This document shows positions 8,846-48,721 of a DNA stretch of 64,000 bases, piece after piece (the stretch's first letter is position 1; every line of letters starts with the position of its first letter). Both the position numbers and the translations under genes were made by a program. The notes under the pieces were generated by a model. That model did no database searches, was not told where the DNA came from, and worked only from the letters and a program-made list of their open reading frames with translations. Origin of the DNA: Nemertoderma westbladi (lineage: Eukaryota > Animalia > Xenacoelomorpha); assembly GCA_032718475.1 (NCBI GenBank), contig JAUCBJ010008725.1, forward strand, positions 1-64,000. Direction: 5' to 3'.

Positions 8846-8849
8846 AGAT

Positions 8850-11089: not shown

Positions 11090-14000
11090 TTGACTCAAAT
11101 AGGTTGTTAGTGTCCCATATAGGGTGTTTGTGTCCCATATAGGTTGATTTTGTCCAAAATAGCCTGTAGCTTTATCAAAATTATTTCAAATAGTTTATAA
11201 ATGTAAAGGAATACTGAAAAGAATATTGACTTCATAATCATAGCTTTAATTCCAATTTGTCCCAAATAGGTTGTTTATGTACCATATAGGGTGTTTGTGT
11301 CCCACACAGGGTGTTTTTATACCAAATAGCATGTAACTTTCTCAAAATGATTTTACATAGTTTATAAAAATGATGGAAATACTCAAAAGAAAATAGAATC
11401 CACTATCATAGCTTTAATTTAAATTTGTCACAAATAGGTTGTTTATGTCCCATATAGGGTGTTTGTGTCCTGTATAGGGTGTTTTGTCCTGAATAGGGGA
11501 ATACAGCTTGCCAACACATTGTTGCTGAATAGGGTGTACATTTCTTATAATGATTTTAAATTGTTTCTAAATGTAATGGAATACTCAAAAGAAAATATAA
11601 TTCACTATCATAGCTTTAATTTAAATTTGTCACAAATAGGTTGTTTATGTCCCATATAGGGTGTTTGTATCTCATATAGGGTGTTTGTGTCCCAAATAGC
11701 GTGTGACTTTCTCAAAATGATTTTACATAGTTTATAAATATAATGGAATACTTAAATTCAATACTTCGTTTGAGTATTCCATTATATTTATAAACTATGT
11801 AAAATCATTTTGAGAAAGTCACACGCTATTTGGGACACAAACACCCTATATGAGATACAAACACCCTATATGGGACATAAACAACCTATTTGGGACAAAT
11901 TTAAATTAAAGCTATGATAGTGGATTCTGTTTTCTTTTGAGTATTTCCATTATATTTATAAACTATGCAAAATAATTTTGAGAAAGTCATACTTTATTTG
12001 GCACACAAACACCCTATATGGGACAAAAACAACCTATTTGGGACAAATTTAAATTAAAGCTATGATAATGAATTCTATATTCTTTTGAGTATTCCATTAC
12101 ATTTCGAAACTATTTGAAATCTATTATAAGCACTTCACACCCTTTACAGGACACAAACACCCTATATGGGACAAAAACAACCTATTTGGGACAAATTGAA
12201 ATTAAAGCTATGGTAGTGAATTCTATATTCTTTTGAGTATTCCATGAGATTTAGAAACTAATTAAAATCACTTTGAGAAAGTAACATGCTATTTGGGATA
12301 CAAACACCCTATATGGGACACAAACAACCTATTTGGGACAAATTTAAATGAAAGCTATGATAGTGAATTCTATTTTCTTTTAAGTATTCCATTACATTTC
12401 GAAACTATTTGGAATCATTATAAGCACTTCATACCCTATACCGGACACAAACACCCTATATGGGACACAAACAACCTATTTGGGACAAATATAAATTAAA
12501 GCTATGATAGTGGATTCTATTTTCTTTTGAGTATTTCCATTATATTTATAAACTATGTAAAATAATTTTGAGAAAGTCATACGCTATTTGGCACACAAAC
12601 ACCCTATATGGGACAAAAACAACCTATTTGGGATAAATTTAAATTAAAGCTATGATACTGAATTATATTTTCGTTTGAGTATTCCATTATATTTATAAAC
12701 TAAGTAAAATCATTTTGAGAAAGTCACACGCTATTTGGGACACAAACACCCTATATGAGACACAAACACCCTATATGGGACATAAACAACCTATTTGGGA
12801 CAAATTTAAATTAAAGCTATGATAGTGGATTCTATTTTCTTTTGAGTATTTCCATTATATTTATAAACTATGTAAAATAACTTTGAGAAAGTCATACTTT
12901 ATTTGGCACACAAACACCCTATATGGGACAAAAACAACCTATTTGGGACAAATTTAAATTAAAGCTACGATAATGAATTCTATATTCTTTTGAGTATTCC
13001 ATTACATTTCGAAACTATTTGAAATCTATTATAAGCACTTCACACCCTTTACAGGACACAAACACCCTATATGGGACAAAAACAACCTATTTGGGACAAA
13101 TTGAAATTAAAGCTATGATAGTGGATTCTATTTTCTTTTGAGTATTTCCATTATATTTATAAACTATGTAAAATAATTTTGAGAAAGTCATACTTTATTT
13201 GGCACACAAACACCCTATATGGGACAAAAACAACCTATTTGGGACAAATTTAAATTAAAGCTATTATAATGAATTCTATATTCTTTTGAGTATTCCATTA
13301 CATTTCGAAACTATTTGAAATCTATTATAAGCACTTCACACCCTTTACGGGACACAAACACCCTATATGGGACAAAAACAACCTATTTGGGACAAATTGA
13401 AATTAAAGCTATGGTAGTGAATTCTATATTCTTTTGAGTATTCCATGAGATTTAGAAACTAATTAAAATCACTTTGAGAAAGTAACACGCTATTTGGGAC
13501 ACAAACACCCTATATGGGACACAAACAACCTATTTGGGACAAATTTAAATGAAAGCTATGATAGTGAATTCTATTTTCTTTTAAGTATTCCATTACATTT
13601 CGAAACTATTTGGAATCATTATAAGCACTTCACACCCTATACCGGACACAAACACCCTATATGGGACACAAACAACCTATTTGGGACAAATTTAAATTAA
13701 AGCTATGATAGTGGATTCTATTTTCTTTTGAGTATTTCCATTATATTTATAAACTATGTAAAATAATTTTGAGAAAGTCATACGCTATTTGGCACACAAA
13801 CACCCTATATGGGACAAAAACAACCTATTTGGGACAAATTTAAATTAAAGCTATGATACTGAATTATATTTTCGTTTGAGTATTCCATTATATTTATAAA
13901 CTACCGTATATAAAATCATTTTGAGAAAGTCACACGCTATTTGGGACACAAACACCCTATATGAGACACAAACACCCCATATGGGACATAAACAACCTAT

Positions 14001-17000
14001 TTGGGACAAATTTAAATTCAAGCTATGATAGTGGATTCTATTTTCTTTTGAGTATTTCCATTATATTTATAAACTATGTAAAATAACTTTGAGAAAGTCA
14101 TACTTTATTTGGCACACAAACACCCTATATGGGACAAAAACAACCTATTTGGGACAAATTTAAATTAAAGCTACGATAATGAATTCTATATTCTTTTGAG
14201 TATTCCATTACATTTCGAAACTATTTGAAATCTATTATAAGCACTTCACACCCTTTACAGGACACAAACACCCTATATGGGACAAAAACAACCTATTTGG
14301 GACAAATTGAAATTAAAGCTATGATAGTGGATTCTATTTTCTTTTGAGTATTTCCATTATATTTATAAACTATGTAAAATAATTTTGAGAAAGTCATACT
14401 TTATTTGGCACACAAACACCCTATATGGGACAAAAACAACCTATTTGGGACAAATTTAAATTAAAGCTATTATAATGAATTCTATATTCTTTTGAGTATT
14501 CCATTACATTTCGAAACTATTTGAAATCTATTATAAGCACTTCACACCCTTTACGGGACACAAACACCCTATATGGGACAAAAACAACCTATTTGGGACA
14601 AATTGAAATTAAAGCTATGGTAGTGAATTCTATATTCTTTTGAGTATTCCATGAGATTTAGAAACTAATTAAAATCACTTTGAGAAAGTAACACGCTATT
14701 TGGGACACAAACACCCTATATGGGACACAAACAACCTATTTGGGACAAATTTAAATGAAAGCTATGATAGTGAATTCTATTTTCTTTTAAGTATTCCATT
14801 ACATTTCGAAACTATTTGGAATCATTATAAGCACTTCACACCCTATACCGGACACAAACACCCTATATGGGACACAAACAACCTATTTGGGACAAATTTA
14901 AATTAAAGCTATGATAGTGGATTCTATTTTCTTTTGAGTATTTCCATTATATTTATAAACTATGTAAAATAATTTTGAGAAAGTCATACGCTATTTGGCA
15001 CACAAACACCCTATATGGGACAAAAACAACCTATTTGGGACAAATTTAAATTAAAGCTATGATACTGAATTATATTTTCGTTTGAGTATTCCATTATATT
15101 TATAAACTACCGTATATAAAATCATTTTGAGAAAGTCACACGCTATTTGGGACACAAACACCCTATATGAGACACAAACACCCCATATGGGACATAAACA
15201 ACCTATTTGGGACAAATTTAAATTCAAGCTATGATAGTGGATTCTATTTTCTTTTGAGTATTTCCATTATATTTATAAACTATGTAAAATAATTTTGAGA
15301 AAGTCATACTTTATTTGGCACACAAACACCCTATATGGGACAAAAACAACCTATTTGGGACAAATTTAAATTAAAGCTATGATAATGAATTCTATATTCT
15401 TTTGAGTATTCCATTACATTTCGAAACTATTTGAAATCTATTATAAGCACTTCACACCCTTTACGGGACACAAACACCCTATATGGGACAAAAACAACCT
15501 ATTTGGGACAAATATAAATTAAAGCTATGATAGTGGATTCTATTTTCTTTTGAGTATTTCCATTATATTTATAAACTATGTAAAATAATTTTGAGAAAGT
15601 CATACGCTATTTGGCACACAAACACCCTATATGGGACAAAAACAACCTATTTGGGATAAATTTAAATTAAAGCTATGATACTGAATTATATTTTCGTTTG
15701 AGTATTCCATTATATTTATAAACTAAATAAAATCATTTTGAGAAAGTCACACGCTATTTGGGACACAAACACCCTATATGAGACACAAACACCCTATATG
15801 GGACATAAACAACCTATTTGGGACAAATTTAAATTAAAGCTATGATAGTGGATTCTATTTTCTTTTGAGTATTTCCATTATATTTATAAACTATGTAAAA
15901 TAACTTTGAGAAAGTCATACTTTATTTGGCACACAAACAAACACCCTATATGGGACAAAAACAACCTATTTGGGACAAATTTAAATTAAAGCTACGATAA
16001 TGAATTCTATATTCTTTTGAGTATTCCATTACATTTCGAAACTATTTGAAATCTATTATAAGCACTTCACACCCTTTACAGGACACAAACACCCTATATG
16101 GGACAAAAACAACCTATTTGGGACAAATTGAAATTAAAGCTATGATAGTGGATTCTATTTTCTTTTGAGTATTTCCATTATATTTATAAACTATTGTAAA
16201 ATAATTTTGAGAAAGTCATACTTTATTTGGCACACAAACACCCTATATGGGACAAAAACAACCTATTTGGGACAAATTTAAATTAAAGCTATTATAATGA
16301 ATTCTATATTCTTTTGAGTATTCCATTACATTTCGAAACTATTTGAAATCTATTATAAGCACTTCACACCCTTTACGGGACACAAACACCCTATATGGGA
16401 CAAAAACAACCTATTTGGGACAAATTGAAATTAAAGCTATGGTAGTGAATTCTATATTCTTTTGAGTATTCCATGAGATTTAGAAACTAATTAAAATCAC
16501 TTTGAGAAAGTAACACGCTATTTGGGACACAAACACCCTATATGGGACACAAACAACCTATTTGGGACAAATTTAAATGAAAGCTATGATAGTGAATTCT
16601 ATTTTCTTTTAAGTATTCCATTACATTTCGAAACTATTTGGAATCATTATAAGCACTTCACACCCTATACCGGACACAAACACCCTATATGGGACACAAA
16701 CAACCTATTTGGGACAAATTTAAATTAAAGCTATGATAGTGGATTCTATTTTCTTTTGAGTATTTCCATTATATTTATAAACTATGTAAAATAATTTTGA
16801 GAAAGTCATACGCTATTTGGCACACAAACACCCTATATGGGACAAAAACAACCTATTTGGGACAAATTTAAATTAAAGCTATGATACTGAATTATATTTT
16901 CGTTTGAGTATTCCATTATATTTATAAACTACCGTATATAAAATCATTTTTAGAAAGTCACACGCTATTTGGGACACAAACACCCTATATGAGACACAAA

Positions 17001-18850
17001 CACCCCATATGGGACATAAACAACCTATTTGGGACAAATTTAAATTCAAGCTATGATAGTGGATTCTATTTTCTTTTGAGTATTTCCATTATATTTATAA
17101 ACTATGTAAAATAATTTTGAGAAAGTCATACTTTATTTGGCACACAAACACCCTATATGGGACAAAAACAACCTATTTGGGACAAATTTAAATTAAAGCT
17201 ATGATACTGAATTATATTTTCGTTTGAGTATTCCATTATATTTATAAACTACCGTATATAAAATCATTTTTAGAAAGTCACACGCTATTTGGGACACAAA
17301 CACCCTATATGAGACACAAACACCCCATATGGGACATAAACAACCTATTTGGGACAAATTTAAATTCAAGCTATGATAGTGGATTCTATTTTCTTTTGAG
17401 TATTTCCATTATATTTATAAACTATGTAAAATAATTTTGAGAAAGTCATACTTTATTTGGCACACAAACACCCTATATGGGACAAAAACAACCTATTTGG
17501 GACAAATTTAAATTAAAGCTATGATAATGAATTCTATATTCTTTTGAGTATTCCATTACATTTCGAAACTATTTGAAATCTATTATAAGCACTTCACACC
17601 CTTTACGGGACACAAACACCCTATATGGGACAAAAACAACCTATTTGGGACAAATTGAAATTAAAGCTATGATAGTGGATTCTATTTTCTTTTGAGTATT
17701 TCCATTATATTTATAAACTATGTAAAATAATTTTGAGAAAGTCATACTTTATTTGGCACACAAACACCCTATATGGGACAAAAACAACCTATTTGGGACA
17801 AATTTAAATTAAAGCTATTATAATGAATTCTATATTCTTTTGAGTATTTACATTATATTTCGAAACTATTTGAAATCTATTATAAGCACTTCACACCCTT
17901 TACAGGACACAAACACCCTATATGGGACAAAAACAACCTATTTGGGACAAATTGAAATTAAAGCTATGGTAGTGAATTCTATATTCTTTTGAGTATTCCA
18001 TGAGATTTAGAAACTAATTAAAATCACTTTGAGAAAGTAACACGCTATTTGGGACACAAACACCCTATATGGGACTCAAACAACCTATTTGGGACAAATT
18101 TAAATGAAAGCTATGATAGTGAATTCTATTTTCTTTTAAGTATTCCATTACATTTCGAAACTATTTGGAATCATTATAAGCACTTCACACCCTATACCGG
18201 ACACAAACACCCTATATGGGACACAAACAACCTATTTGGGATAAATTTAAATTAAAGCTATGATAGTGGATTCTATTTTCTTTTGAGTATTTCCATTATA
18301 TTTATAAACTATTTAAAATAATTTTGAGTAAGTCATACGCTATTTGGCACATAAACACCCTATATGGGACAAAAACAACCTATTTGGGACAAATTTAAAT
18401 TAAAGCTATGATACTGAATTCTATATTCTTTTGAGTATTCCATTACATTTCGAAACTATTTGAAATCTATTATAAGCACTTCACACCCTTTACGGGACAC
18501 AAACACCCTATATGGGACAAAAACAACCTATTTGGGACAAATTTAAATTAAAGCTATGATACTGAATTATATTTTCGTTTGATATTCCATTATATTTATA
18601 AACTATGTAAAATCATTTTGAGAAAGTGACACGCTATTTGGGACACAAACACCCTATATGGGACACAAACACCCTATATGGGACACAAACAACCTATTTG
18701 GGACAAATTTAAATGAAAGCTATGATAGTGAATTCTATATTCTTTTGGGTATTCCATTACATTTCGAAACTATTTGAAATCATTATAAGCACTTCACACC
18801 CTATACCGGACACAAACACCCTATATGGGACACAAACAACCTATTTGAGT
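11090..18850. repeat. About 148-bp satellite with 20-21-bp subrepeats and ~1.2-kb higher-order structure
   Basis: The anchor CTATTTGGGACAAA recurs at 11886, 12034, 12182 and 12329. A variant monomer recurs at 12293, 13494, 14700, 16522 and 18049. Confidence 0.95.
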
Positions 18851-20363
18851 CAAATTTAAGACTTATTAAGGACTATTTGGGATGAAGTTGAGTCTGGGGG
18901 AGGAGGTTGCGATATCACTAATTTGATTGTCATTTAATTATTATTATACGAATGTATTTAGATTTATTATATGTGAATAAATTGCACCACATGAATAAAT
19001 TGCACTATGAATAAATTGCACAACATGAATAAATTGCACAATATGAATAAATTGCACAACATGAAATGAAATAACGTGACTATGGTGACACTATAGCCTA
19101 TAATGCATCAGTCTTACAGGCCATTTGCAAGGCACCCACAGTATATCTTTAACCATAACTAGGGAACATGTATTCCAAATGCCCTTATTTAGAATGGGAA
19201 TTTCCACTGTACATATACCTCAACCAGCTCTTGTCCCAAATACGTTGCTCTGTCCAGTATAGGTTGTTATAATGAGCCCCGGATTCGTAGCTGACACTTG
19301 GATTATATATCAGTGGAATTTCCCATTAACCTTTACATTATATACCGGTAGCCAATAAGGGAGATGCCTAACTTTAGGAATGTTGGTATTGGTTCGATGA
19401 CGAGGAGTTGGCTCATATGATGATTTCATTGGATGCCCCTATATTGGACAGGTTGGAAATCATTACACAACGTATTTGGGACAGGTAGGAATAATAGAAA
19501 GCCCCATAGAAGTGAAGGGAAACACCCTATTCTGGACAATGATGTAGACACTACTCTAAAAAGTATGCATGTGATGGGATTAGTCCTACAATTGCGCCAA
19601 TAAAAGATAAGTTATTTTCGGTAAAATAAACTTATCATTAGAGGTTAAGACCTCTAGATCCCTTCCTATAATATAATAAATGTATAATACAAATATATAC
19701 CTGGAAAAATACAGCTTGCCAACACATTGTTACTATCAATAACTGTTAGTTAGGGTAGGTTTCTTAAATATGAAGTTTTTTTCTTCCTATATAGGAAATC
19801 GTGCTTCCTACATGTCCTATATTGCTATAATTAGGCAATTTTTGCGATTTTTCTGAACATTTTCTTCGTCATCTTTTGAAATAAATTTTAGCGAACGTTA
19901 ACGTTAGCGAATCATAACGAAAATTCCAAAAACCCGGTCCGAATAATTCCTAAAACCCGGTCCATAAACTCACGGTCCCAAAAATGAAATGACTAAAATC
20001 TGGTCTCGATCTTAAAGTTAAAATGTCTAAAACCCGGTCCCAAAATCCCGGTCCAATTTTTTTTCTTTATTTTACCGTAGGTCTAGAGTATAGTTTATAG
20101 ATATACATGTTAATTAAAAGCGATCCTAGGCGTACTTATACAGTATCGTGGCTGGGAAATTAGAACCGGGATCTTCCGGTGAATTTAGATCCAAGGCACA
20201 CATGCACTAGATCCTAGACGAACTTATGGCAAACTTAGATACAAGGCAAACTTAGATCCTACAGTAAATGAACTTCTAGTAAATTTAGACGTTGGCGAAC
20301 ATTAGATCCTGGATGAACGTAGCTTAGATCCAAAGCGAACCTAAATAAAGGCAAATTCCATCT

Positions 20364-26577: not shown

Positions 26578-27357
26578 TTAATTTTGGACTGAACTTCCAT
26601 TTAAATGGCATTATTTTTTTAATTGTTTCCAGTTTACTTGGGTAGTTTCAAAATTAGCTTAATTATACAGTAGTTTAGGTTAGGCTAAATATTGCTAAAT
26701 ATTATTTACTTTGTAGTACCTACTGTATTTTTTAATTAATCATAACTTTGATACATAATACCAAATATACCTACTGCTACTACCTCATATAAATAGTGTT
26801 ACAAAGACTACCGGTACGGCGGTACCTGTACTTTTAGTGAGGTTTTCTAAATTTGATGTCACTACTGTACGGCTTACTACGGGTGAAAATGTGGTGCATA
26901 CAGTAAGTATACAGTAGTTTAGGTTAGTAATGTACAGTAATGTAAATATTGCCATTTTATTTTGTAGTACTTATTTTTTTAATTAATCATAGCTTTCTTG
27001 CTAAGTCCGCAGACCAAATAGGTCCCAGTCTGCCTCTGCCACTGCCAGTCAGCCAGTATAGTCTGATAGTGACGTAAATACGAATTTATGACCATAACTT
27101 GCTAACTTTTTGAACTTCGGTTCGGATTCGGTTCGGTTCGGCCCGAAGTTGGCCCTGCTTCGGTTCGGTTCGGTTCGGCCCCATAAAGTGCCTTCTGTTG
27201 AACCCTAGCTGCGAGTCGTCTACGTAATCAAGTCGATGCACTCCAACGCAAGTGCATCAGGTTCTGCCTGGGACTTGACTCTCGAGCGCATATTGGTGCT
27301 GCCCATTTTGTAGATATAAACTGGCTTCCAATTACCGAACGTACCCACCAGATAATA

Positions 27358-27658
27358 TATTGGGATCGGAAATAAATGAATACCAGCTGCATCAGTTTAT
27401 TAATGGTCGACATACAGAACAGCATATCAAACAATAATAAGAACCAACAGACCAACGAACACACCCACCACCTTACAGCACATCAGTACAGCAGTACAGT
27501 AGGTACGGGTAACGGTTACTGTACCTACAGACCTAGAAGATAGGAAAGACTGAATACCGGAATACCAGAAGAGGACCGGTAGGTAAAAGACCAGTAGGTT
27601 GGATCTAACCACCACCAAGCCAGGGTCTACTAGAACCCTAACAATACATAATCTAACA
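27358..27658 (-). repeat. 3' LTR
   Basis: Direct repeat of 31903-32203 with one substitution seen by eye (GTACGGGTA vs GTACCGGTA). Reads TGTTAG...CCAATA on the minus strand. Confidence 0.95.
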
Positions 27659-27667
27659 TCTCCCCCA
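27659..27667 (-). other. Polypurine tract
   Basis: Minus-strand GGGGGAGA immediately before the TGT start of the 3' LTR. Confidence 0.75.
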
Positions 27668-27727
27668 AGAACAATGTAGGATACATTTGTACTGAAAACA
27701 AAATCCAACCACCACCAATAGGTCAGT

Positions 27728-30700
27728 TCATTGAACTCCGAATCTTGCTGGTTGCTTGTGAGTTCTCGAACTGCGCCTGGGAAGATCATCAGCGAACTGT
27801 ACATGTTTTTGAGGCGTTATATCACGAAGAGAAGAGTCATCTGGGATGGAACGTAGATAACGACGATTTCTCCAATACACCCGACCATTGTCTAGTTCTA
27901 TCCGGTAATCTCGCCTAGTACCACGGGAAAGGACGATACCAGATTTGTTCCATAGTTTGGAATGTGCACTCTGGATGCAAACTCGGGATCCAATAGGAAT
28001 CGGGGTTAAGTCGTGAGCATGATCATTATAATATGATTCAGTTGCTGAAGACGTTGAAGGACCAGGGATAGGGAATGAATCACCTGCCAGTGTGGATGAA
28101 TGAGCTGGTATAGTAGAACGGAGGGATCTACCGAACAACAGTTGAGCTGGAGACATACCATGTTCTTTAGGAGTATTTCTCCATTCCAGCAAACCACGAA
28201 CAAAGCAAGTAGAGTTTAGATCTCCTTTGACATCTAACTTTTTTATCAATGATTTCATGGCCTTTACAGCCCCCTCTGCATGGCCATTAGACTGAGGATA
28301 CTCAGGAGTAGAATACTCAGGGATGATATTCCATTCGGATAAGAAATCATGATAACGTGCTGAATTAAATTGTGTACCACCATCAGAACGAAGGCGTTTT
28401 GGAATACCGAAATCTTTGAACCATCCTCGAAGAGCTGAAATAACTTGAGAGCTGGAAGGATCGGCACGCCAAGAATGAACGCATGGCCACCCAGAATATC
28501 TATCGACATAAACCAGGTATGACCAGGTGCTGAAGTAGAAAAGATCAGCAGAGCAATCCTCCATTGGAAGACATGGATGAGGGTCGCTTTGGAGAGACTC
28601 TTTAGGTAAACTTGGTTGATAAAGTTGACACTGGGGACAAGAATTGACCATGTTTGTAATATCGCTATTGATACCAGGCCAGAATACAGTTTGCCTAGCT
28701 CTCCTCTTAGAACGTTCAATGCCCTGATGAGCATCATGAAGGTGCTTCAGGACATTCTTGCGGAGGGAAGATGGAATTACAATCCGGGAACCTAATAAAA
28801 GAAGATTATCTTCACAAGATAACTGATGTCGCACATTCCAGAATGGGCGTATGTGCACAGAACATTGTGTGGATGTTGAGGGAAATCCAGAAATAACAGC
28901 ATCCACCAAAGCCATGTAAGAAATATCATCCTTTGCAGATGATCGGATAGACTCAATATATGAATCCTTGAGATGACTTGGAGCATCAGAGACAACAATT
29001 GAGGTAGACACGTGACGAATGACTGCAGAAACATGGTCATTGACATCTGTATCACAAAGAATATCCTCTGGAGTAGTATCCGAAACAGGGGCACGGGAAA
29101 GTGTGTCTGGAATCGAATCGATATCGGAAGTGATATCGGAAGTGATATCGGAAGTGATATCGGAAGTGATATCGGAAGTGATATCAGAAGTGATATTGGA
29201 AGTGATATCGGAAGTGATATTGGAAGTGATATCGGAAGTGATATCGGAAGTGATATCGGAAATGATATCAGAAGTGATATCAGAAGTGATATCGGAAGTG
29301 ATATCGGAAATGATATCGGAAGTGATATCAGAAGTGATATCGGAAGTGATATCGGAAATGATATCGGAAGTGATATCAGAAGTGATATCGGAAGTGATAT
29401 CGGAAGTGATATCGGAAATGATATCGGAAGTGATATCAGAAGTGATATCGGAAGTGATATCAGAAGTGATATTGGAAGTGATATCGGAAGTGATATCGGA
29501 AATGATATCAGAAGTGATATCAGAAGTGATATCGGAAGTGATATCGGAAGGATGGACCCAATCAGTTGGTTCGTTATCCAGAACTGGACAAATAATACCT
29601 TGTTCAACCATTTTCTCTAAGCGAGCTTTAGCCCAGTCTCTAATGGCTAAAGGAAGTTGCCTGGCTGTATGAATAGCATATGGTTGGGCATCATCTTTTA
29701 ATGAAATGGTCATGGGTGGGCCATTCATTGGACGAAGTTTGTCATCTTGGTCAAAAACATCAGAATAAGCCTTTATGAGTTTCTGCTTAACAATATCCCA
29801 TTCTGAAGGCGAAGGTTCATCAGAAAGATGGAAGTCAACCTTGAATGATGTTGTTGGAATTGAGTTTTTAATACCAATAGGTGACATATTAGAAGAATTA
29901 GAAGAAGCAACAGACTGAATTTCTGCCACTGGTTCTGGATATGAACTTGAAATAATTCCTAGGTTTTGACAAGTATACCATGCCAAAAGAATTCCATCGA
30001 CTTCTTCACAAATGCAGATAAGCTCATCAGTTGAATATTCGCCATAGGAAATTGAGGTGTGGAGGAGACCAATGCATGAAAGAAGACTACCATTAGCAGC
30101 AGAAAGATCATCATCGTCTGGTGGAAGTAAATTTTCTTTGTCAATAGAAAGGGCCTGAAGAAAATCTAAGCCGGCAACAGTGGCCTCAGCACCAGTATCT
30201 GGAGTTGCTTTGAGAGAACCGAATAAATGTCCTGTTGCGATATGACAGAAGTTCAGAAATACTTTCGGAGCTTGTCGATTATGGCTTCCAACCAAATTGA
30301 GGGTGATGCGGCTAATGGGTTTTGTCTTAGGTTTTGAAGATGAATTCGAATTATTTTGTTTAGACCGACAAACATTGGCAAAGTGGCCTTCCTTGCCACA
30401 ATAAGAACAATCTTTGTTCCTTGCTGGACAGTCAGCGCGTTTATGGTCTGTTTTACCACAACCATAACAAACTATAGGGCCAGTAGTTGAAGAATTGTTT
30501 CTGGAATTTGATTTAGAAGAATTGTTGCGCCTGGAATTATAAGGCTTTTTGTTGTGAAAACGAGATTGTCGAGAAGCTTGGTTGATTGAAGGGTTTTTTA
30601 AATCCTGAACTCCAGCTTGGGCTGATTCCTCAGACCTACAAAGATTTACAGCATCTTCAAGCGAAGGAAATGGAGTCAATGCAAGAAGTTTAGATCTGGT

Positions 30701-31372
30701 GTCCTCGCAAGAAATACCAGACATAATTCGAGTAGTCAACCGCCGATCGAAACAATGACGACATAGATCAGCATCTCGAGCAAGATCTTTAATAGCAACC
30801 AGGTAGCTATCAAAATTTTCACTTTGACGTTGTTTCCTATTATCAAACTGAACACAATCAAGGGCTATATTCCGTTTACCACGAAAATAACTTTGAATAC
30901 AATCTATTAACACCTGAACTGTTAAAGGATTATCATGTGTGTCAGGAGGAATGTCAATAACTTGTTCCAGTGTAGAGCGCATACCTATAGAAAGGTAACT
31001 CCTGAAAATACAGATTTGCCTATCCCTAGCCATTCTATCCATCTGAAATGCAGAATAATAATCTGCCCAAACCGACTTCCAAGTTTCAAATTTTGCTAAA
31101 CTGAAATCCGGTTCTAAAGCAATTGGTGCTTTAATTTGAAGATTACGAGGGGTTGAGTCAGCCTGATGAACTACAGGTTGATGTGGTTGACCAAGTAATT
31201 GTTGAAATTGATGGGCATTTTGGGCTTGGGATTGTGCTAAGGAATCAGCCAAATCGCGTTGTGATTTAACTAAAGCATGTAGAAGAGCTGAGGTGGGATC
31301 AGGATTACCACGACCAGCCAACTGTTCTCTTAAAACCTCCAGTTCGGTTTCGAGTTCAGCTTTAGTAGGCAT
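27728..31372 (-). CDS. Gag-protease-(SDIT)n-integrase polyprotein
   Basis: 1214-aa ORF. Two CCHC knuckles (CYGCGKTDHKRADC, CSYCGKEGHFANVC), protease DTGA, RT start up to DWVHP, about 36 SDIT repeats, RNase H tail IPDTLSR, then integrase HHCC and D(ADLF)-D(SDGG)-E(NGHAEGAVK). Confidence 0.92.
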   Translation of the reverse strand: MPTKAELETELEVLREQLAGRGNPDPTSALLHALVKSQRDLADSLAQSQAQNAHQFQQLLGQPHQPVVHQADSTPRNLQIKAPIALEPDFSLAKFETWKSVWADYYSAFQMDRMARDRQICIFRSYLSIGMRSTLEQVIDIPPDTHDNPLTVQVLIDCIQSYFRGKRNIALDCVQFDNRKQRQSENFDSYLVAIKDLARDADLCRHCFDRRLTTRIMSGISCEDTRSKLLALTPFPSLEDAVNLCRSEESAQAGVQDLKNPSINQASRQSRFHNKKPYNSRRNNSSKSNSRNNSSTTGPIVCYGCGKTDHKRADCPARNKDCSYCGKEGHFANVCRSKQNNSNSSSKPKTKPISRITLNLVGSHNRQAPKVFLNFCHIATGHLFGSLKATPDTGAEATVAGLDFLQALSIDKENLLPPDDDDLSAANGSLLSCIGLLHTSISYGEYSTDELICICEEVDGILLAWYTCQNLGIISSSYPEPVAEIQSVASSNSSNMSPIGIKNSIPTTSFKVDFHLSDEPSPSEWDIVKQKLIKAYSDVFDQDDKLRPMNGPPMTISLKDDAQPYAIHTARQLPLAIRDWAKARLEKMVEQGIICPVLDNEPTDWVHPSDITSDITSDITSDIISDITSDITSNITSDITSDITSDITSDIISDITSDITSDITSDITSDIISDITSDITSDITSDIISDITSDITSDITSDIISDITSDITSDITSNITSDITSNITSDITSDITSDITSDITSDITSDIDSIPDTLSRAPVSDTTPEDILCDTDVNDHVSAVIRHVSTSIVVSDAPSHLKDSYIESIRSSAKDDISYMALVDAVISGFPSTSTQCSVHIRPFWNVRHQLSCEDNLLLLGSRIVIPSSLRKNVLKHLHDAHQGIERSKRRARQTVFWPGINSDITNMVNSCPQCQLYQPSLPKESLQSDPHPCLPMEDCSADLFYFSTWSYLVYVDRYSGWPCVHSWRADPSSSQVISALRGWFKDFGIPKRLRSDGGTQFNSARYHDFLSEWNIIPEYSTPEYPQSNGHAEGAVKAMKSLIKKLDVKGDLNSTCFVRGLLEWRNTPKEHGMSPAQLLFGRSLRSTIPAHSSTLAGDSFPIPGPSTSSATESYYNDHAHDLTPIPIGSRVCIQSAHSKLWNKSGIVLSRGTRRDYRIELDNGRVYWRNRRYLRSIPDDSSLRDITPQKHVQFADDLPRRSSRTHKQPARFGVQ
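29120..29550 (-). repeat. 12-bp tandem repeat replacing RT/RNase H
   Basis: (GATATCGGAAGT)n on the plus strand, about 36 units, in frame with the polyprotein. Confidence 0.97.
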
Positions 31373-31889
31373 ATCTGACTGTTGAATATTAGAGAAATTT
31401 CAGGAAATTAAATATCCGAAAAAATTTGCAAAATCCGAAAAGAAAAAATTTTGCAAAAATGTGCAAAACTTTTGCATGCAAATCAGCCAAAATCTGTAGT
31501 TATCGAATACTGGCAGACTGGAATACCGCCTGACTGCTGAATGTGAATAGGTACCGGTAGTTTCTAATTAGGCTAGCGGGCGTCGCTGCCTACCCCTCAC
31601 GGCCCCCGGACAGTGCAAGGTCCTCAGCGCCGATGTACCGTCGTCGCTGTGTTTTTCGCCAACGATGTAGCTACACAACGACAACGATAACCGCGAGCCA
31701 CTCCACTGTCCGTCCCAAGGGCTTAGTTTAGAAGAGTACTGGAGTAGGTACACCACCGGAAGTATAGGTAGGTAGCTAGGCCTAGATCAGAATCAGTAGA
31801 GGCGACCGGTAGAATAATATTGAATTATCTGACCTGCTGAATGCGCTGGAATGTCCACCATTTGAATAGGGTTGTAGGAACATCAAGTA

Positions 31890-31902
31890 CATCACTGCGC
31901 CA
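31890..31902 (-). other. Primer-binding site
   Basis: Minus-strand TGGCGCAGTGATG directly after the 5' LTR; TGG pairs with tRNA CCA. The primer may be tRNA-Ser, unverified. Confidence 0.75.
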
Positions 31903-32203
31903 TATTGGGATCGGAAATAAATGAATACCAGCTGCATCAGTTTATTAATGGTCGACATACAGAACAGCATATCAAACAATAATAAGAACCAACAGACCAA
32001 CGAACACACCCACCACCTTACAGCACATCAGTACAGCAGTACAGTAGGTACCGGTAACGGTTACTGTACCTACAGACCTAGAAGATAGGAAAGACTGAAT
32101 ACCGGAATACCAGAAGAGGACCGGTAGGTAAAAGACCAGTAGGTTGGATCTAACCACCACCAAGCCAGGGTCTACTAGAACCCTAACAATACATAATCTA
32201 ACA
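31903..32203 (-). repeat. 5' LTR
   Basis: Direct repeat of 27358-27658, followed by the PBS on the minus strand. Confidence 0.95.
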
Positions 32204-33324
32204 TAATATTAACCCACATGTTTAATATCCACGCAAAGACAGCCCCGGCTTATATGCGCGACATGGTTATCTTTACTGAACCTTCTCACCTCCTACGCAA
32301 CGGAGCCACACACGCTTTACTACCCCAGAAACACACGGTAGCAGCCACACAGTCGTTCTCCTACCTTGGCCCATATCTGTGGAATAAACTCCCCAATGCG
32401 ATCAAAGAAATTAGGAGTGTGGAAAGTTTTAAGCATAAGTTAAAGGATCACTTTTTAGAACTTTTATCCACCAATGAATTGTCGTCATATAAGTAACTTA
32501 TAACTTTTTACCATCTATATTTTATATTTTATATCATTTGACTTTCCACATTAACTCAAACAAAAGATTGAAGATCCATTTTTAGAATTTTTATTTAATA
32601 GTAAATGTTTTATATTTTTGATTTATACATTATTTTAGAATTTTTATCCTGCACGAGAGCACGACCTTATACCTTTTATTCTAAACCCCAATCTACAGGA
32701 CCCCTGTGGAAATGAGACTATGTCGGACTTATATGTCGGTATGTCTATACTTTACTTCGTTTGTCAAATAAATAATTCCAATTCCAGCCAGCTGGCCAGT
32801 ACCAGTACTGCAGTACAGTCAGTCAGTCATTGACTTTAAGTAAATACTGCAGTATTATCAGATATTGAAGCTGTACTACAGTACTTATAGTGTTAAATAA
32901 TTGTTCAGATTAGAATATCAGTCGGTGATATAGGCGATTTTGGACTTATTCCAATTTTGGAACTTTGTGCGAGGGTAGATTTCGAAATCGGAATACACTC
33001 CAAAATTGGACTTTTCTAAATTAAAAAAAAATATTTTAAAGTCCTGCAAGTATATTTCCATCATAAATTCTATCATTTTTCAATAAATATATGTTTTTTG
33101 TACCAAATTCATTATTCCTACCATGCTTTTGCAGAAATGTATTCATACATTCCAAAATTGGACTTTGTTTGCAGAGATGCTATGGAGGATGACTGCTGTA
33201 ACACTAACAAGTAACAAGGTACAGGGGTCCGATCATAAGGCTATATGGGCATGACTAGAGCTGTACCCTGTACAGCACAGTTCTACGCTAGAAGCACAGC
33301 TGCAGCTAGACCCTAGACCAAGCT

Positions 33325-34765: not shown

Positions 34766-37008
34766 TCTAGTTTTTAAAATCTATTTACGTATGTCAGTAT
34801 GTACATTGACAAAGTGAAACAAAATAGAGTAAATAAGATAAATTTCATTCAGAAAGACAACTGTAGACTTAAAGTGCTAAGTGCTGTTATGTGCTGTTCA
34901 ATAGAAACAATACGCTACCCATTCTGCCATTGTCCTGCAGTGTACTGTACGTACAGTAGTATAGCAGTATAGTGCTGATGGAAAGACAAAATTGGACCTA
35001 AAGTCCAAAATTGGACGTGCAAAACTTTAAATGTCGGTTATCTTTGTGGTGCACCGTGAAATTTTCTCGTGCACGGTTAAAACTCTTATTTTGTAGTAAA
35101 GAACATGTAGGTTAAATTTCAGATCCCGTCTGAAAAAATTGTAGGCCGTGGAAAATTCACTGTAATTCATATCAAAATTAAATCCGATATTGGAATGGAA
35201 GTCCAATTTTGACTTAGCAAGTTCCAAAATTGGATCAAGTCCAAAATCGCCTATATCACCGACTGAATATGCACGAAATATAATACTTTATTAAAAAATT
35301 AACTCCGGCAATATTTTTACCGGAGCCGGAGCAGGAGCCGGAGGTGCCAAAATGGCCGGAGCCGGAGCTCCGATCGAGCCCTAGTGGACAGCTGTCAGGC
35401 TGTAGTCATGCGGCATGCTGCGCTGCAGGCCCATATAGCCTTACTGCCTTATGGATGGACGGACCCCTGCACCTTTATAGTGTTACAGCTGTCATCCTAC
35501 ATAGCATCTCAGCAAACAAGGTCCAATTTTGGAATGTATGAATAAATTTCTGCAAAAGCATGGTAGGAATAATGAATTACCGGTAGGCACAAAAAACATA
35601 TATTTATTGAGAAATGATAGAATTTATGATGGAAATATCCTACGGTAGTTTGAAATATATTTTTTTTTCATTTAGAAACGTCCAATTTTGGAGTGTTTTC
35701 CAGTCAGCCAGTATTCCGATTTTGGAATCTACCCTCGCACAAAGTTCCAAAATTGGAATAAATCCAAAATCGCCTATATCATTAGCCCACCACCGACTGA
35801 ATGTAAAAATTTGACAAAAAATCAGTTTTTAGGTAGGGCCTACCGTACTAAAAGGAAGGGGGAATATCGGCTAAGGTACTTGTATTTGTGGGTCCATCTA
35901 ACATTGTTTCGTAATCCTTTATTATTGTAATAGGCCTACCGGCAGACGGCTACTAGTACATGTATTACATAGGCTGATAGGCCTGACAGACAGACAGAGT
36001 GACAGTCCACTATGCAAATGCAAATTACCGGTCACCGGTACCGGTACCAATCTGCCAATATTACTGAGTGTAATAATTATTTATTACATGAGAAAAAATT
36101 CGAACTTTTTTTCACTCTTCTCGAGGCATTTTCATGATTTTATTTACCGTGCGTCACCGAGGTTAATAAAGGGTAGAGATAATATTTTAAAAAATGTTCT
36201 ACACGTTTTTTTCCCATGTATACGTATTTTTATTCTTAAATTATTGGTACTTTTGTGTTGATGAATTCTTTAATAAAAAATTGAGCGATATAGCAGTTAG
36301 CAGTATAGTGCAGTTGCACTAGTATTGCAAAATTAATTGAAATGTAGTATTTTACTATATTGCTTCCATATAGTAGTTACTCTGTTACTGCAATTCAAAT
36401 TACTGCACTCTTCAACTCCCTGAATCCTGACTACCTGACAGCCTGATCGCTGATGGTTCCTTATCCTTACTCAATGTTAAATCAGTAAATTATTTAGAAC
36501 TAAAGATATAAGAACTAAAGAACGTAACTAAGGATATCACTAAAGATAAACCAACTGACCAATATCGGATTGAGTCCTACTAACAGCCTAACCATATGTC
36601 ATTATCTAACAAATTTAGCGGTATTTCCGGCATTATTGCTATGAGCTAGATAGGGCGTTATTGGCCAATAAATTTTGTTTAAATATTTAATTGCGTCGGT
36701 GCTACAAAGATTTATTTAATTAATCTTATACCTGTTATATACCGGTAGTAGGTCTTCTATTGGTAATCTGCTATTTTGCTGTTTTGATTGGAAGTCGGAA
36801 CTAATTTGTACGATTGTGTCACCACGGTCTGAAGGTACGTTGATACTCCACAACCACACCCGATAATATACCGTTCGGTTTTGCTTATGCCATTCAGCCA
36901 TTAGACTATCAGCTACCGATATATACTGATATACCGATACTTCAGCAATAATATCACAATTTTATAGATTCTGTTAATTAGCGCACTATTTAACTTTCTG
37001 CGATTTCC

Positions 37009-39622
37009 ATGGCTGATGATGGTATGGACGATATTCGGGTTGATTCGCAGAAATTAGCTCTACTAGAAGCCCGTATGAATCGCACCCCCTATCCCGTCTC
37101 TTCCGTTATTACTCAACATCAGCAACAATTCCTACAATTAGGCGTATCTACTACACCACTGGCTGTGGCATCATCACTCATTGGTGAGTCATCAGGTGTT
37201 GCAAATGTGAACCAGTTCTACGCCGCCTCGCTGTCGTCGGTAACTTCGGAATGTTCTATCCGTGTGGCACCGACGGCCCAGGTGCCACCCATCTACACGG
37301 TCGCGCCACCAGCGGTGGCTCACGTGCCGCTGGGGAGCTCTGCTCCAGAGCTCCAGCACACCCCGTTAGCCGCAGCCTGCCAGTCTGGGGAAAGTGTCTC
37401 GGCAGTGGTACCTCTAGCCCCACATCAAGTATCCTCTGCGCCACCGGTGGCTCTCCTTCCGGTTGCGTTGGCTCCCTCGCAGCCCCATTCTGCCGCCCTT
37501 GTAGACGACGCCAGTCGAGATAGCCGAGCGAGTCAGGGTTCAACCAACTCAGAGTCCAAGGAAGAACTCCCAACCCCGGATAAAACCAAGGGAACATCCT
37601 CGTTAGAACGGCGACGGAAGCGTAAGTTGGATTCCTCGTTCACTGGACTCAGTGGTGACGCGGCTAAAAAGGAGGGATCCAAGAAAATACACGATTATTT
37701 TAAGACGACGCCGCCTTACGGAGTCGGTTTGGTGGCTGGCCAGGACGATTTGTACCCGGCAGCGCCCCTTCCGCTGCCTGTTAACGGTTCTTCCGAAACC
37801 GGGGCTGTCGATGTCAGGCCACTCCTCCATTGTGCGATGGTTCCTCCCATAGACTCCTCCCCTGTTGCAGGAGGCTCCTCTCTACTCCACGGAGGCGCCC
37901 CTATCCTCCCTGGAGGCGCCCCTATCCTCTCTGGAGGCGCTCCTGTCCTCCCCGGAGTCGTCCTCTACTCCCGGAGGCGCCACTCTCCTCCCTGCGGGGA
38001 TTGTCTCCTCAGTTGCGACGCAAACCGACGTGGAATGGGAGGCTCTTCAGCAAGCGTCCCGCTCCGAGGACGAGGAGAAGAACAAGGCGATGGCCCAGCT
38101 GTACCGGGACAACGAACTCTATAAGCTAAACACCCTGACTCTGGAAACGAAACTAGACAAACTCGAGGGGGTCTTCAGCCGTTCCAAGGAGGTCATTAAA
38201 CAGTTGCTTGTGGACAAATCTGAGGCAGAAAGTCGGCTAGCGCGGCAGAAACTCATGGAGAACAATCTGCGATACGGGCAGATGGTAACGCAACGACAGG
38301 GAACCCGGTTCGATGAAGTGTTCCAGGAGGGGTACCTGTTCAAGGAGATCGCCTTGAAACGGGATCGCCTCATACAGGATCGGGAGGAGGTGGACAAGCA
38401 TCGGAAGATACTCGCACGGAGGAAACCCGGCTCCGCCCCCGGGAAGGCCGCCAACGACGTGAAGATTTTAACCGCGGAGGAATTCCACGAACAAGACGAG
38501 ATCCTCAAGTTGCGTCAGGTTATCCTTAAGAAGGAGTTGGAGGAGGCCGTCCAGGAGTACGATAAGTTGGAGCGGGAGCGGAATCTACATCTTAGGGAGT
38601 CGAAGCGCATTCATCATGAAAACGTTTCTCGGTTCCACAACCATCCGGTCCTCAACTCCCGCTACCTTCTCCTCCACCTTCTAGGGAAGGGCGGATTCTC
38701 CGAGGTTCATAAGGCCTTCGATCTTTTGGAACAACGGAATGTCGCCTGTAAGATACATCAGATAAACCGCGAGTGGAAAGAAGATAAGAAATCCAACTTT
38801 ATTAAACACGCAGTTCGGGAGTATAAGATACATAAAGGGTTGGATCATCCTCGAATCGTTAAACTCCACGATGTGTTTGAGATTGATAACGATTCGTTCT
38901 GCACAGTGCTCGAATACCTGGATGGTAACGACCTGGAGTTTTACCTGAAGCAGCACAAGTTTATGAGCGAGAAAGAGGCTCGTTGTATCCTGGTGCAGGT
39001 GGTCAACTCATTGAGGTACTTGAACCAGAGTTGTCCCGAGGGATCCATCATCCATTACGATTTGAAGCCGGGAAACATATTATTGGGTTCAGCGAGTCGA
39101 TGCGGCGAGATAAAGATAACCGACTTCGGTTTGTCTAAGATCATGGCGAATTCTGACTGCGACGGGACCGAGTTGACCTCGCAGGGCGCCGGTACCTACT
39201 GGTACTTACCGCCCGAGTGCTTCGAGGTGACGCCCCCCGGGCACCCCCCGCCCAGGATATCCTCCAAGGTCGATGTTTGGAGCGTCGGGGTTATATTCTA
39301 TCAGTGTCTCTACGGTCGCAAGCCCTTCGGCCATAACCTCCCGCAAAGTGTAATTCTAGAACAGCAAGTAATACTGAACAATGCTAAGGAACTGACTTTC
39401 CCCACAAAGCCGTCCGTTTCTCAGGAAGCTAAGAACTTTATGAGACGTTGTTTGATTTACGATAAAGTCTTACGGCCTGATGTGCTAACCATTGCCGAGG
39501 ACGATTATCTTAAGAGCTTTAAAAAGTCTTCAACAGAGAAAAATAAAGAAGGTCTCTATACATCGGTAAATAATGCCACTCCCCCTACCCCCAGTACGTT
39601 GTCCAACCCAACCAATCTATGA
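37009..39622 (+). CDS. TLK: Tousled-like Ser/Thr kinase; reading frame broken at about 37954-37973
   Basis: ORF 37009-38124 has the TLK N-terminal motifs (LLEAR, RRRKRK, KKIHDYF). ORF 37865-39622 has the coiled coils and kinase domain (LLGKGGFSEV, VACKIH, HYDLKPGNIL, ITDFGLSK, SQGAGTYWYLPPECF). Confidence 0.9.
37870..37993 (+). repeat. 21-bp coding minisatellite (GGAPILP-like) with one 19-bp unit
   Basis: Units start at 37870, 37891, 37912, 37933, 37954 and 37973; the fifth unit is 19 bp. Confidence 0.85.
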
Positions 39623-41896: not shown

Positions 41897-43245
41897 TTAC
41901 CTGTGCTATTGGTCCCGTTACCTGTGCTATTGGTCCCGTTACCTGTGCTATTGGTCCCGTTACCTGTGCTATTGGTCCCGTTACCTGTGCTATTGGTCCC
42001 GTTACCTTTGCTATTGGTCCCGTTACCTGTGCTATTGGTCCCGTAACCTGTGCTATTGGTCCCGTTACCTGTGCTATTGGTCCCGTTACCTGTGCTATTG
42101 GTTCCGTTACCTGTGCTATTGGTCCCGTTACCTGTGCTATTGGTCCCGTTACCTGTGCTATTGGTCCCGTTACCTGTGCTATTGGTCCCGTTACCTGTGC
42201 TATTGGTCCCGTTACCTGTGCTATTGGTCCCGTTATTGGCCCGTTACCTGTGCTATTGGTCCCGTTACCTGTGCTATTGGTCCCGTTACCTGTGCTATTG
42301 GTCCCGTTACCTGTGTTATTGGTCCCGTTACCTGTGCTATTGGTCCCGTTACCTGTGCTATTGGTCCTGTTACCTGTGCTATTGGTCCCGTTACCTGTGC
42401 TATTGGTCCCGTTACCTGTGCTATTGGTCCCGTTACCTGTGCTATTGGTCCCGTTACCTGTGCTATTGGTCCCGTTACCTGTGCTATTGGTCCCGTTACC
42501 TGTGCTATTGGTCCCGTTACCTGTGCTATTGGTCCTGTTACCTGTGCTATTGGTCCCGTCACCTGTGCTATTGGTCCCGTTACCTGTGCTATTGGTCCCG
42601 TTACCTGTGCTATTGGTCCCGTTACCTGTGCTATTGGTCCCGTTACCTGTGCTATTGGTCCCGTTACCTGTGCTATTGGTCCCGTTACCTGTGCTATTGG
42701 TCCCGTTACCTATGCTATTGGTCCCGTTACCTTTGCTATTGGTCCCGTTACCTGTGCTATTGGTCCCGTTACCTGTGCTATTGGTCCCGTTACCTGTGCT
42801 ATTGGTCCCGTTACCTGTGCTATTGGTCCCGTTATTGGCCCGTTACCTGTGCTATTGGTCCCGTTACCTGTGCTATTGGTCCCGTTACCTGTGCTATTGG
42901 TCCCGTTACCTGTGCTATTGGTCCCGTTACCTGTGCTATTGGTCCCGTTACCTGTGCTATTGGTCCCGTTACCTGTACTATTGGTCCCGTTACCTGTGCT
43001 ATTGGTCCCGTTACCTGTGCTATTTGTCCCGTTACCTGTGCTATTGGTCCCGTTACCTGTGCTATTGGTCCCGTTACCTGTGCTATTGGTCCCGTTACCT
43101 GTGCTATTGGTCCCGTTACCTGTGCTATTGGTCCCGTTATTGGCCCGTTACCTGTGCTATTGGTCCCGTTACCTGTGCTATTGGTCCCGTTACCTGTGCT
43201 ATTGGTCCCGTTACCTGTGCTATTGGTCCCGTTACCTGTGCTATT
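41897..43245. repeat. Highly homogeneous 21-bp minisatellite (TTACCTGTGCTATTGGTCCCG)n
   Basis: About 63 units, with a truncated unit TTATTGGCCCG at about 42233, 42832 and 43137. Confidence 0.98.
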
Positions 43246-46774: not shown

Positions 46775-47860
46775 CTGTCATTTATTATATTTATTTTACA
46801 TTTATAGTGCTTCTTGTAGTCTAGAACGTCAAAAACACATTTCATAGATAAGTCCAGAAAAAGAGAAAGAATTGGGTCGAGGTGTCCGAATGATACGAAG
46901 GTCTGGGGTGCTTCGTTTCGTCAGAAATGTAAGAATTTAACTGTTACCTGAGCAATTGACTCTCGTTTATTACTTTAGTTAGAATAACGTGCCAACCTCC
47001 TCATTTTCTTTAATCTACCTATTCGGACCTTCATCCCATTTGGCGGCATTTGGGGACTGGAACCCTCCTGAACCGAAAGGATTATGGCTATTTCTTCTGT
47101 ATTATATTTTAGGAAGTGAAGAAATCCATCCATCCAATAACGCGGGAAATTCAAAACGTAGTTAGGGCAAACCTGATTGCAATAATTATTGTACGGTAGG
47201 CCTAAACTGTACGTATAAAATCACAAACAGACAAAGCAAAACCCTGAAACCACAGTTCAGAAATATTATGTTCCGGTTGGCTGCGTACTTACTAACGTGT
47301 GAATGTTCCTGAAATCTATTGCCATACTTAAACGCGATTATGACAGTACGAGTGCAGTTTAGTGACTAGCTCCTGACTGAGAGTGGCTACCGGAACTGCA
47401 AGTGGCCTATCTGACTGTCTGAATACTGGAATATGTCTCTATAATGCTTTATGTCTGTATGTACCGCTTTATCTACAGTCCTACCGTATTCAGTACGGTA
47501 TACTGGTATATGCAGATGTACCAGTACGCACCGCACCGCACATGTACGCATTGTTGTGTGAATGGCAATAATTACATCTCATTATTGCATTATTATGAAT
47601 GTATTCCGAAAGGTATACATTGGTAAGGTACACGTATAAACATTTGGTCGTAATTCAGTAATTATAAGAGTATAATAAGTCTATATCTGTATGTGACCCG
47701 GTTTGTCTACTGTCTGGCGGTTGGTATCTGTTCGTTTTATGTTTTCGTAATAAGCCAATGTCTACCTGTTTTTGTATAGATTTCCTTAAATTTTCCATTG
47801 TTGTGTGTGTCTCTTCTGTTTAGCCAACTTTATTGTCAGTCAATTAAATCCCATCCCAAC

Positions 47861-48721
47861 ATGTTGTTGCGTTTATTAAATAGACCGGCTGCCGTTAATA
47901 ACAACGTATTGTTTCGGTTCCGGAATCAACTACATTGCTACCCGTCTTCGGTAACTTTACTCGTGTCGCCTTCTATTAAAACTGTAGCGAATTGTTATTC
48001 CTGCCGACCTATTATATCCCAACCGTTGACTTCACTTCATCGTCATATAAACTTCAACTATTTTGCTATTAACAGGTATTTATCCCAAAAACACAATGGT
48101 AAAGCTGAAGAAAATTTTCAGCCAGTTGATGTAAATTCCTCCTTAACTATTTTAGATAAATGCAAAATTATAGCGAAGCAGTATGGGATTGTGTTCATCC
48201 CATTACACACTGCAATGTGCGTAGTTTGGTTTGCAGTAATATACTACGCGATTAAGTACGGCATAAATCTTGGTGCTGTGTTGGAGTACATCCCTCTACC
48301 AAGTAATCTACGCAGTTTACTCAACGAGCACCAGACAGCCGGAGTCTGGGTTACGGCACTCGCGGTATTTAAGGTCTCAGGTATGTTGCGATATCCTTTG
48401 GATATCGGTCTCACCTTATTTGTTGTCCAGCAATTCCGAAAGTTCGGATATTTTAATCAACCGCCTCCTAATTTACGGAGCGATATTATCGGAAATGTAA
48501 AAAACCGACGAAAAAACGCCGGAAATAATCTTAAGAAACAGAGAGACAACGTAACTCTTAGACTAGCGACAGGGAGGATTCGTTTGAGACAATCGTTGTG
48601 GAGAAAACGAGATAGTATAAAGAAAAGTTTTAGAAATAAACAGCAGAAGTATGGGAGATTGCGAACCAGATCGATTCGTTCTAATGGTTCTGGTTTTAGT
48701 GGTAAAAATAATACCAGATAA
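47861..48721 (+). CDS. FAM210A: FAM210A-like (DUF1279) mitochondrial membrane protein, single coding exon
   Basis: ATG at 47861 starts an Arg-rich, acid-poor presequence-like N terminus. KQYGIVFIPLHTAMCVVWFAVIYYAIKYGINL...TALAVFK....RY resembles the FAM210A core; very basic C-terminal tail. Confidence 0.8.
   Translation: MLLRLLNRPAAVNNNVLFRFRNQLHCYPSSVTLLVSPSIKTVANCYSCRPIISQPLTSLHRHINFNYFAINRYLSQKHNGKAEENFQPVDVNSSLTILDKCKIIAKQYGIVFIPLHTAMCVVWFAVIYYAIKYGINLGAVLEYIPLPSNLRSLLNEHQTAGVWVTALAVFKVSGMLRYPLDIGLTLFVVQQFRKFGYFNQPPPNLRSDIIGNVKNRRKNAGNNLKKQRDNVTLRLATGRIRLRQSLWRKRDSIKKSFRNKQQKYGRLRTRSIRSNGSGFSGKNNTR

Follow-up and report, generated by a model that had tools for sequence, protein, structure and literature searches.

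A Gypsy element of Nemertoderma westbladi with an in-frame 12-bp minisatellite in place of reverse transcriptase and RNase H, probably one copy of a multi-copy non-autonomous subfamily

How does a retrotransposon that lacks its own reverse transcriptase (RT) come to sit, recently inserted, in a genome, and is it the only copy of its kind? The question is raised by a 4.85-kb Gypsy (Mag-like) element on the minus strand, at 27358–32203 of the 64,000 nucleotides of Nemertoderma westbladi DNA analysed here (assembly GCA_032718475.1, contig JAUCBJ010008725.1, positions 1 to 64,000), which as a whole we call the window. Our best explanation, to which we assign a probability of about 0.75, is as follows. 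A Gypsy element in which a 12-bp array takes the place of RT-RNase H, in frame, inserted here recently. It likely belongs to a non-autonomous subfamily with multiple copies, and near-identical sisters that still bear RT would reverse-transcribe it in trans.

The open frame and what replaces RT-RNase H

A single open reading frame (ORF) keeps the Gypsy order of Gag, protease (PR), RT, RNase H (RH) and, last, integrase (IN), with stubs of RT and RH lying between PR and IN, in the same place as the RT-RH of relatives. The features of this frame and of the ends of the element are as follows.

27353–27357, no strand: left copy of the target-site duplication, TAATA (5 bp)
27358–27658, minus: 3' long terminal repeat (LTR), 301 bp, TG...TA, one difference from the 5' LTR
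27659–27666, minus: polypurine tract, adjoining the 3' LTR
27728–31372, minus: single ORF, 1214 aa from the first Met, Gag-PR-(RT stub)-(SDIT)n-(RH tail)-IN
28295–28555, minus: integrase core, Pfam rve (aa 940–1026), with DLF, SDGG and NGHAE motifs
28613–28777, minus: integrase HHCC zinc-binding domain (aa 866–920)
29093–29119, minus: the last ~9 RNase H residues, kept (aa 752–760)
29120–29548, minus: 12-bp minisatellite, 35.75 units, 429 nt, in frame (SDIT/SDII/SNIT), replacing 1113 nt
29549–29845, minus: retained N-terminal RT stub ending WVHP (aa 608); upstream boundary approximate, from the Ty3 RT alignment
30188–30199, minus: protease active-site motif DTGA (aa 392)
30368–30469, minus: two CCHC zinc knuckles of Gag (aa 302, 322)
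31559–31718, no strand: very high-copy short repeat in the 5' leader, depth ~100-fold that of the element interior
31892–31902, minus: primer-binding site, beginning TGG directly after the 5' LTR
31903–32203, minus: 5' LTR, 301 bp
32204–32208, no strand: right copy of the target-site duplication, TAATA

A preliminary description, made from the letters of the window, had read CCHC knuckles, a DTGA protease and a full integrase in this 1214-aa ORF, and ORF, motif and Pfam analysis bore it out. Integrase_H2C2 matched with E 2e-18 and rve with E 2e-12, and the PDB matches of the ORF were to integrases and to Gag/nucleocapsid chains. No RT or RNase H Pfam match was found in the 1214 aa, and the sole match to [YF]xDD in the ORF is FADD, in the C-terminal tail. 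The absence of YxDD had also been pointed out; there is indeed none in the RT position, but the RT of most relatives has VVDD at this motif anyway.

The array at 29120–29548 (unit TCCGATATCACT) encodes 143 aa between WVHP and DSIPDTLSR; about 36 SDIT units had been counted by eye, in good agreement with the 35.75 measured. Variant bases (17 of 420) represent three transition types, two at a CpG, and are arranged in repeated higher-order blocks. In an alignment to the Ty3 RT/RH chain 4ol8, the 5' break corresponds to residue 102, and the 3' break lies ~9 residues short of where the matched chain ends. Judged from these alignments, the element has lost the catalytic body of both RT and RNase H and is left with a stub of each; at one position of the RNase H remnant it has Thr, and 117 of 118 relatives have Ala there. 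The earlier statement that the whole RT-RH unit had been exchanged is right in that 371 codons were replaced in frame, but the piece removed was not a clean domain. With these 371 codons absent, the element does not have the RT and RNase H of its own that define an autonomous Gypsy element.

The size of the missing piece corresponds to the normal interior of the clade. We compared 120 relatives, of which 103 aligned on both sides of the array and 17 had no usable N-terminal side. The RT-RH gap in the 103 has a median of 371 aa; 101 fall at 357–381, and two are shorter (47 and 221). Among 266 relatives, 194 have Gag/PR plus integrase, and RT is present in 184 of these. The remaining ten comprise four that lose both RT and RNase H, four that keep RNase H and two concatenated oddities. 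The four (of 194) without RT-RH stay in frame through joins of 4–67 aa of ordinary, non-repetitive sequence, and low-complexity filler was found in none of the ten. A protein search with the linker region, in which the best-sharing 7988 candidates were scored, returned no second element with such a linker; the six proteins matched are all without retrotransposon Pfam domains. At the level of these predicted proteins, in-frame loss of RT-RH recurs in the clade and the array does not. Proteins P0093, P0113, P0176 and P0189 are related Gypsy sequences from other sources in which Gag-PR runs in frame to integrase without RT/RNase H; they may be multi-copy forms or assembly errors. In P0099 and P0104, RT is absent and RNase H is kept.

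With one breakpoint inside RT and the other inside RNase H, the swap would spare the processing sites at PR/RT and RH/IN; IN would thus mature normally, and no spacer would be needed. The preliminary description had assigned the repeat the role of a spacer that keeps IN fused to Gag-PR. That part of it is not supported, given the position of the breakpoints and the 4–67 aa with which relatives manage.

The ends of the element are those of a Ty3/Gypsy LTR retrotransposon, with paired LTRs, a target-site duplication, a primer-binding site and a polypurine tract. The last three had been called intact, and they are (TAATA on both sides, a primer-binding site beginning TGG, a purine run at the 3' LTR). 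The two 301-bp LTRs have a single mismatch (27507 G / 32052 C), also as first described; their termini are TG...TA, atypical at the 3' end, and not TG...CA. By these signs, the target-site duplication together with LTRs differing at 1 of 301 positions, the insertion is recent and of the integrase type. The primer-binding site is presumably tRNA-Ser-like; no tRNA was found in the window. The right flank resembles what we take to be the 3' end of an old LINE, which has no Pfam support. The leader repeat at 31559–31718 is common to other elements, judged by its ~100-fold depth over the Gypsy interior.

RT-length sisters and the share of the RT-less form

Three of six short-read runs, from two samples, contain 0.69–0.75 of the words. 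Four runs were compared, X1 and X2 from sample S1, X3 from S2 and X5 from S3, with X4 and X6 left out. Contig depth is not copy number, and this holds for all depth shares given here.

A contig of X3 (1879 nt, depth 552.4) matches the window over 29868–29549 apart from a single difference, leaves it at 29549 and rejoins it at 29118, at its own base 1435, with 1113 nt (371 codons) in between versus 429 in the window. A non-array loose end at 29118 is found in X1, X2 and X3, three of the four runs. A sister with an RT-length interior therefore exists in S1 and S2, its interior being called RT-RH by length only. It is ~99.7% identical to the element, and, as a putative partner identified by length, it has near-identical neighbouring sequence.

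The array-bearing form accounts for a large share of this family. In X2, the contig running from integrase into the array has a depth of 811, the non-array form 522 and the shared trunk 1541; in X1, the array-junction contigs have depths of 107 and 250 (or 381 past site 29104) versus 678 for the trunk. The integrase/array junction thus makes up 53–61% of family depth in S1 (X1 and X2), and it is 1.5–2.2 times as deep as the right flank of the locus in both runs. Because the junction is deeper than the flank, the array form must occur elsewhere, even with a single-copy flank. By contig depth, and directly in one sample, the RT-less form is multi-copy.

Two junction alleles, differing at site 29104 (depths 107 and 250 in X1), occur among array-bearing contigs, and a difference at ~29114, a position read from contig ends, separates array from non-array contigs. 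The ratio of array-only depth to RT-less depth is 6–8 in X2 and 5.5–6.1 in X3, and the 31-mer multiplicity of the window's array is 5. Since array-only depth is near this fivefold multiplicity, the other copies likely carry similar arrays. The element differs from the majority contigs at about 5–6 positions in 2.35 kb. If the shallow divergent contigs (~10–49) mark single loci, our guess is that RT-less copies number in the tens.

Could the array instead be a one-off repair after insertion, present at this locus only, with RT in all sister copies? RT-length sisters do exist, tandem arrays abound in the window and include in-frame ones within a host-type ORF, and X3 is without a listed junction contig. 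These points fit such an event, but a junction that takes more than half of family depth, exceeds its flank in X1 and X2 and comes in two unequal alleles does not, and we regard it as quite improbable.

Alternatively, the RT-less form might be multi-copy through spread at the DNA level, by segmental or tandem duplication or gene conversion, rather than by retrotransposition. The array is not phased with insertion sites, and the window lies in repeat-rich DNA, as such spread would allow. However, duplication of the locus would be expected to deepen the flank along with the junction and to leave contigs that link the LTR with the flank. Flank depth is in fact below junction depth, and the listed flank contigs do not extend into the LTR, so duplication of the locus does not explain the junction depth. 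Gene conversion over half of the copies seems unlikely, and we consider spread of this kind improbable.

An assembly artefact at the repeat is a third alternative, which we hold to be extremely improbable. The array is unspanned by short-read contigs, and its 429-nt length rests on the assembly; but contigs of two runs pass from the integrase side into the array with 0–1 differences and at high depth, and the array units show structured variation in higher-order blocks. For the 3' junction, the artefact explanation is largely refuted.

The preliminary description had itself proposed a non-autonomous lineage with an RT-bearing partner. Two results support this: the junction, whose depth exceeds both half of the family depth and that of the flank, and the RT-length sister. 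It had also named two cases that would overturn it, and neither is what we found: the repeat is not confined to this locus, since junction depth exceeds flank depth, and the junction is not misassembled, since contigs cross it on the 3' side.

Several observations weigh against a multi-copy subfamily mobilized by its sisters. Direct junction contigs come from one sample only (S1), from which the assembly itself may have been made. X3 (S2) has no listed junction contig, and its RT-length contig is unbroken through both break points; the junction region there consists of two contigs, the RT-length one and an array-only one at depth 3293, and the 61–65% RT-less share in S2 is arithmetic on contig means. 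A contig across the 5' array junction is absent among the pieces listed (1835 more are unlisted), and an X2 contig of high depth ends exactly at 29549. The contigs cannot join the array to the target-site duplication, so that distinct insertion sites are unseen, and the sister's interior is known from length alone. Finally, the five gag-PR differences from the majority contigs are three synonymous and two non-synonymous (P 0.09–0.16 under neutrality) and do not establish purifying selection.

In X5 (S3), matches are confined to the LTR and the leader repeat, with nothing at the junction, which is not evidence of absence. A 2281-nt contig of this run spans the whole LTR (31903–32204) with 3 differences and stops short of the primer-binding side and the flank; it is likely a solo LTR at another site.

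Origin of the array, selection and the surrounding window

We propose the following route to a multi-copy RT-less subfamily. One ancestral copy would have lost 1113 nt, with one end of the loss in RT and the other in RNase H. The join would have received a short filler, perhaps templated by sequence at the break, which slippage would then have enlarged into the array. As the frame stayed open, the RNA would still encode Gag, protease and integrase, and the protease is predicted to release the RT stub and repeat as waste. The LTRs, the primer-binding site and the polypurine tract that were kept would allow co-packaging with helper RT. Transcription from the LTR, followed by repeated retrotransposition, could then have continued until the RT-less form matched or outnumbered its helper. 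The array itself is most likely tolerated filler and not a working part.

The rest of the element does not contain the unit, and no exact copy of it lies in the remainder of the window. Within the deleted sequence, right next to the 3' break, an 8-nt word of it occurs in inverted orientation (by eye; chance ~0.8% per 30-nt stretch, post hoc). This word suggests a filler templated by fold-back, with later expansion by slippage in a minisatellite-rich genome; fold-back templated filler is described for end-joining repair in the passages cited (PMC5728401, PMC11724301). Two other sources were considered and set aside. The unit might have been a surviving piece of the RT x-N-I-T motif, as x[DN]IT is present in 51 of the 104 relatives having that motif, but 17% of 5000 shuffled units equalled it when single transitions were allowed, and 84% did so for the main unit alone. 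A separate genomic minisatellite source is not needed; array-only depth fits the element's own arrays, and no exact copy lies in the window.

Is the array instead a selected working part, in which the open frame to integrase, or a palindrome-rich RNA, gives RT-less RNA an advantage in cis? This possibility is compatible with our explanation of a trans-mobilized subfamily and differs from it only on selection. An in-frame join combined with a unit length divisible by 3 has a naive chance of ~1 in 9, and the RT-less form holds the majority share of the family. The fusion protein of mouse IAP IΔ1 is reported to act in cis in the part of the source cited (PMC6466679). The palindrome GATATC is found in every unit, and folding of the array gives hairpins. 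On the other hand, none of the 36 single changes in the unit gives an in-frame stop, and the period is a multiple of 3 in 12 of 17 distinct arrays that we picked by eye from the window; the open frame is for these reasons weak evidence of selection, and we rejected the absence of stops and the 12-bp period as proof of it. The four relatives without RT-RH do with short, non-repetitive joins. An RNA fold z of -12 follows from the repeated palindrome, and, the shuffle control being unsuited to tandem repeats, it was not counted. Overall, we think it unlikely that the array is selected.

More speculatively, and in our view doubtfully, this may be a defective-interfering-like partnership at its birth. 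The RT-less subfamily would supply Gag, protease and integrase, would be selected to stay translatable via a coding minisatellite able to grow or shrink in frame, and would through a cis advantage have overtaken its 99.7%-identical helper. If true, such a partnership may alter how much capsid a single-ORF Gypsy family has relative to RT.

Elsewhere in the window, an intronless FAF1/UBX-domain ORF at 862–2736 on the plus strand (Pfam FAF1 E 6e-24, UBX E 2e-8) contains an in-frame 18-bp array encoding GDSSVS (1156–1642); in-frame minisatellites thus occur also in a host-type ORF of the window. A long uninterrupted protein-kinase ORF at 36994–39622 on the plus strand (Pkinase E 9e-56), which we take to be Tousled-like, overlaps, at a 21-bp array (37870–37992), an ORF that lies upstream in a different frame, and is possibly a retrocopy or the product of a frameshift at the array. 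A further 21-bp array with internal inversions lies at 41897–43245, and a 39-bp satellite of more than 200 copies (55829–64000) runs off the window end. At 10363–19553, long inverted arms (pieces 96–98% complementary) surround a 148-bp satellite in a foldback-like element. The minus strand carries a LINE RT fragment (7938–8954) and an 890-aa ORF (49757–52429) that has no Pfam match at E 0.01 and is transposase-like by eye; an intronless FAM210-domain ORF lies on the plus strand at 47780–48721.

Comparison with known systems

Mag-lineage Ty3/Gypsy elements are described, in the passages cited, as ~5 kb long, with short LTRs, a mostly 5-bp target-site duplication, two CCHC knuckles, often one ORF, and a Ser or Leu primer-binding site (PMC3286476, PMC2577118). 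The present element has two CCHC arrays, a 5-bp target-site duplication, short LTRs and neither env nor chromodomain, traits that are not exclusive to Mag. Unlike the Mag descriptions, its LTRs end in TA and RT-RH is missing; the Mag placement is by traits, without an RT tree.

Non-autonomous LTR elements are common; those described in the papers cited are left with no ORF, with Gag-PR alone or with POL pieces in decay. The TRIM, LARD and TR-GAG classes are non-coding or carry GAG/PROT only, and this element falls outside them with a full integrase in the same ORF. A full-text search, with most subscription papers and Repbase outside its scope, returned no element in which Gag-PR-IN is intact and RT-RH has given way in frame to a minisatellite, and the parts cited of 10.1101/710657, PMC6097303 and PMC5753468 give no RT-less, integrase-keeping precedent.

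Culex quinquefasciatus has non-autonomous LTR elements that, in the part of the source cited (PMC3286476), share with ours young LTRs, a primer-binding site, a polypurine tract, a target-site duplication and an internal tandem array. However, they are described there as non-coding and without a known master copy, and the repeats of the three Mag elements lie in the 5' UTR, whereas here the array is inside an open polyprotein frame. In sugar beet, 15 of 115 non-autonomous families keep some POL domain (RT, RH, INT or CHD), 8 of them with GAG/PROT (PMC13570524); the passages cited describe these remnants as partly decayed and mention no in-frame repeat, and the additional tables of that work may list GAG/PROT+INT families. 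[quoted passage not shown] In contrast, as far as the cited passages go, they are also without integrase, and their partners are old and diverged (PMC9744471, PMC11302176 for both points), whereas here integrase is kept and the helper is ~99.7% identical.

Mouse IAP IΔ1 offers a further parallel to our reading of a recent subfamily that is probably mobilized in trans by the parent form from which it arose. In the part of the source cited (PMC6466679), it is an in-frame deleted, non-autonomous form that makes up most new IAP insertions, its internal deletion leaving one in-frame fusion ORF whose protein is reported to be cis-acting. IAP, however, is an endogenous retrovirus, and IΔ1 has a plain 1.9-kb gag-pol deletion and needs gag and pol in trans (PMC6466679). 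In the Nemertoderma element, the loss is confined to RT-RH, with a minisatellite in its place, and Gag, PR and IN all seem complete. If our explanation is right, annotation based on RT would miss or misclassify more than half of this Gypsy family. A defective form with capsid, protease and integrase retained in a single frame, set apart from its helper by little more than the RT-RH swap and seemingly the more numerous of the two, would bear on the origin of transposon parasites and would provide a natural experiment on whether, as with IAP IΔ1, translation or integrase acts in cis for LTR retrotransposons.

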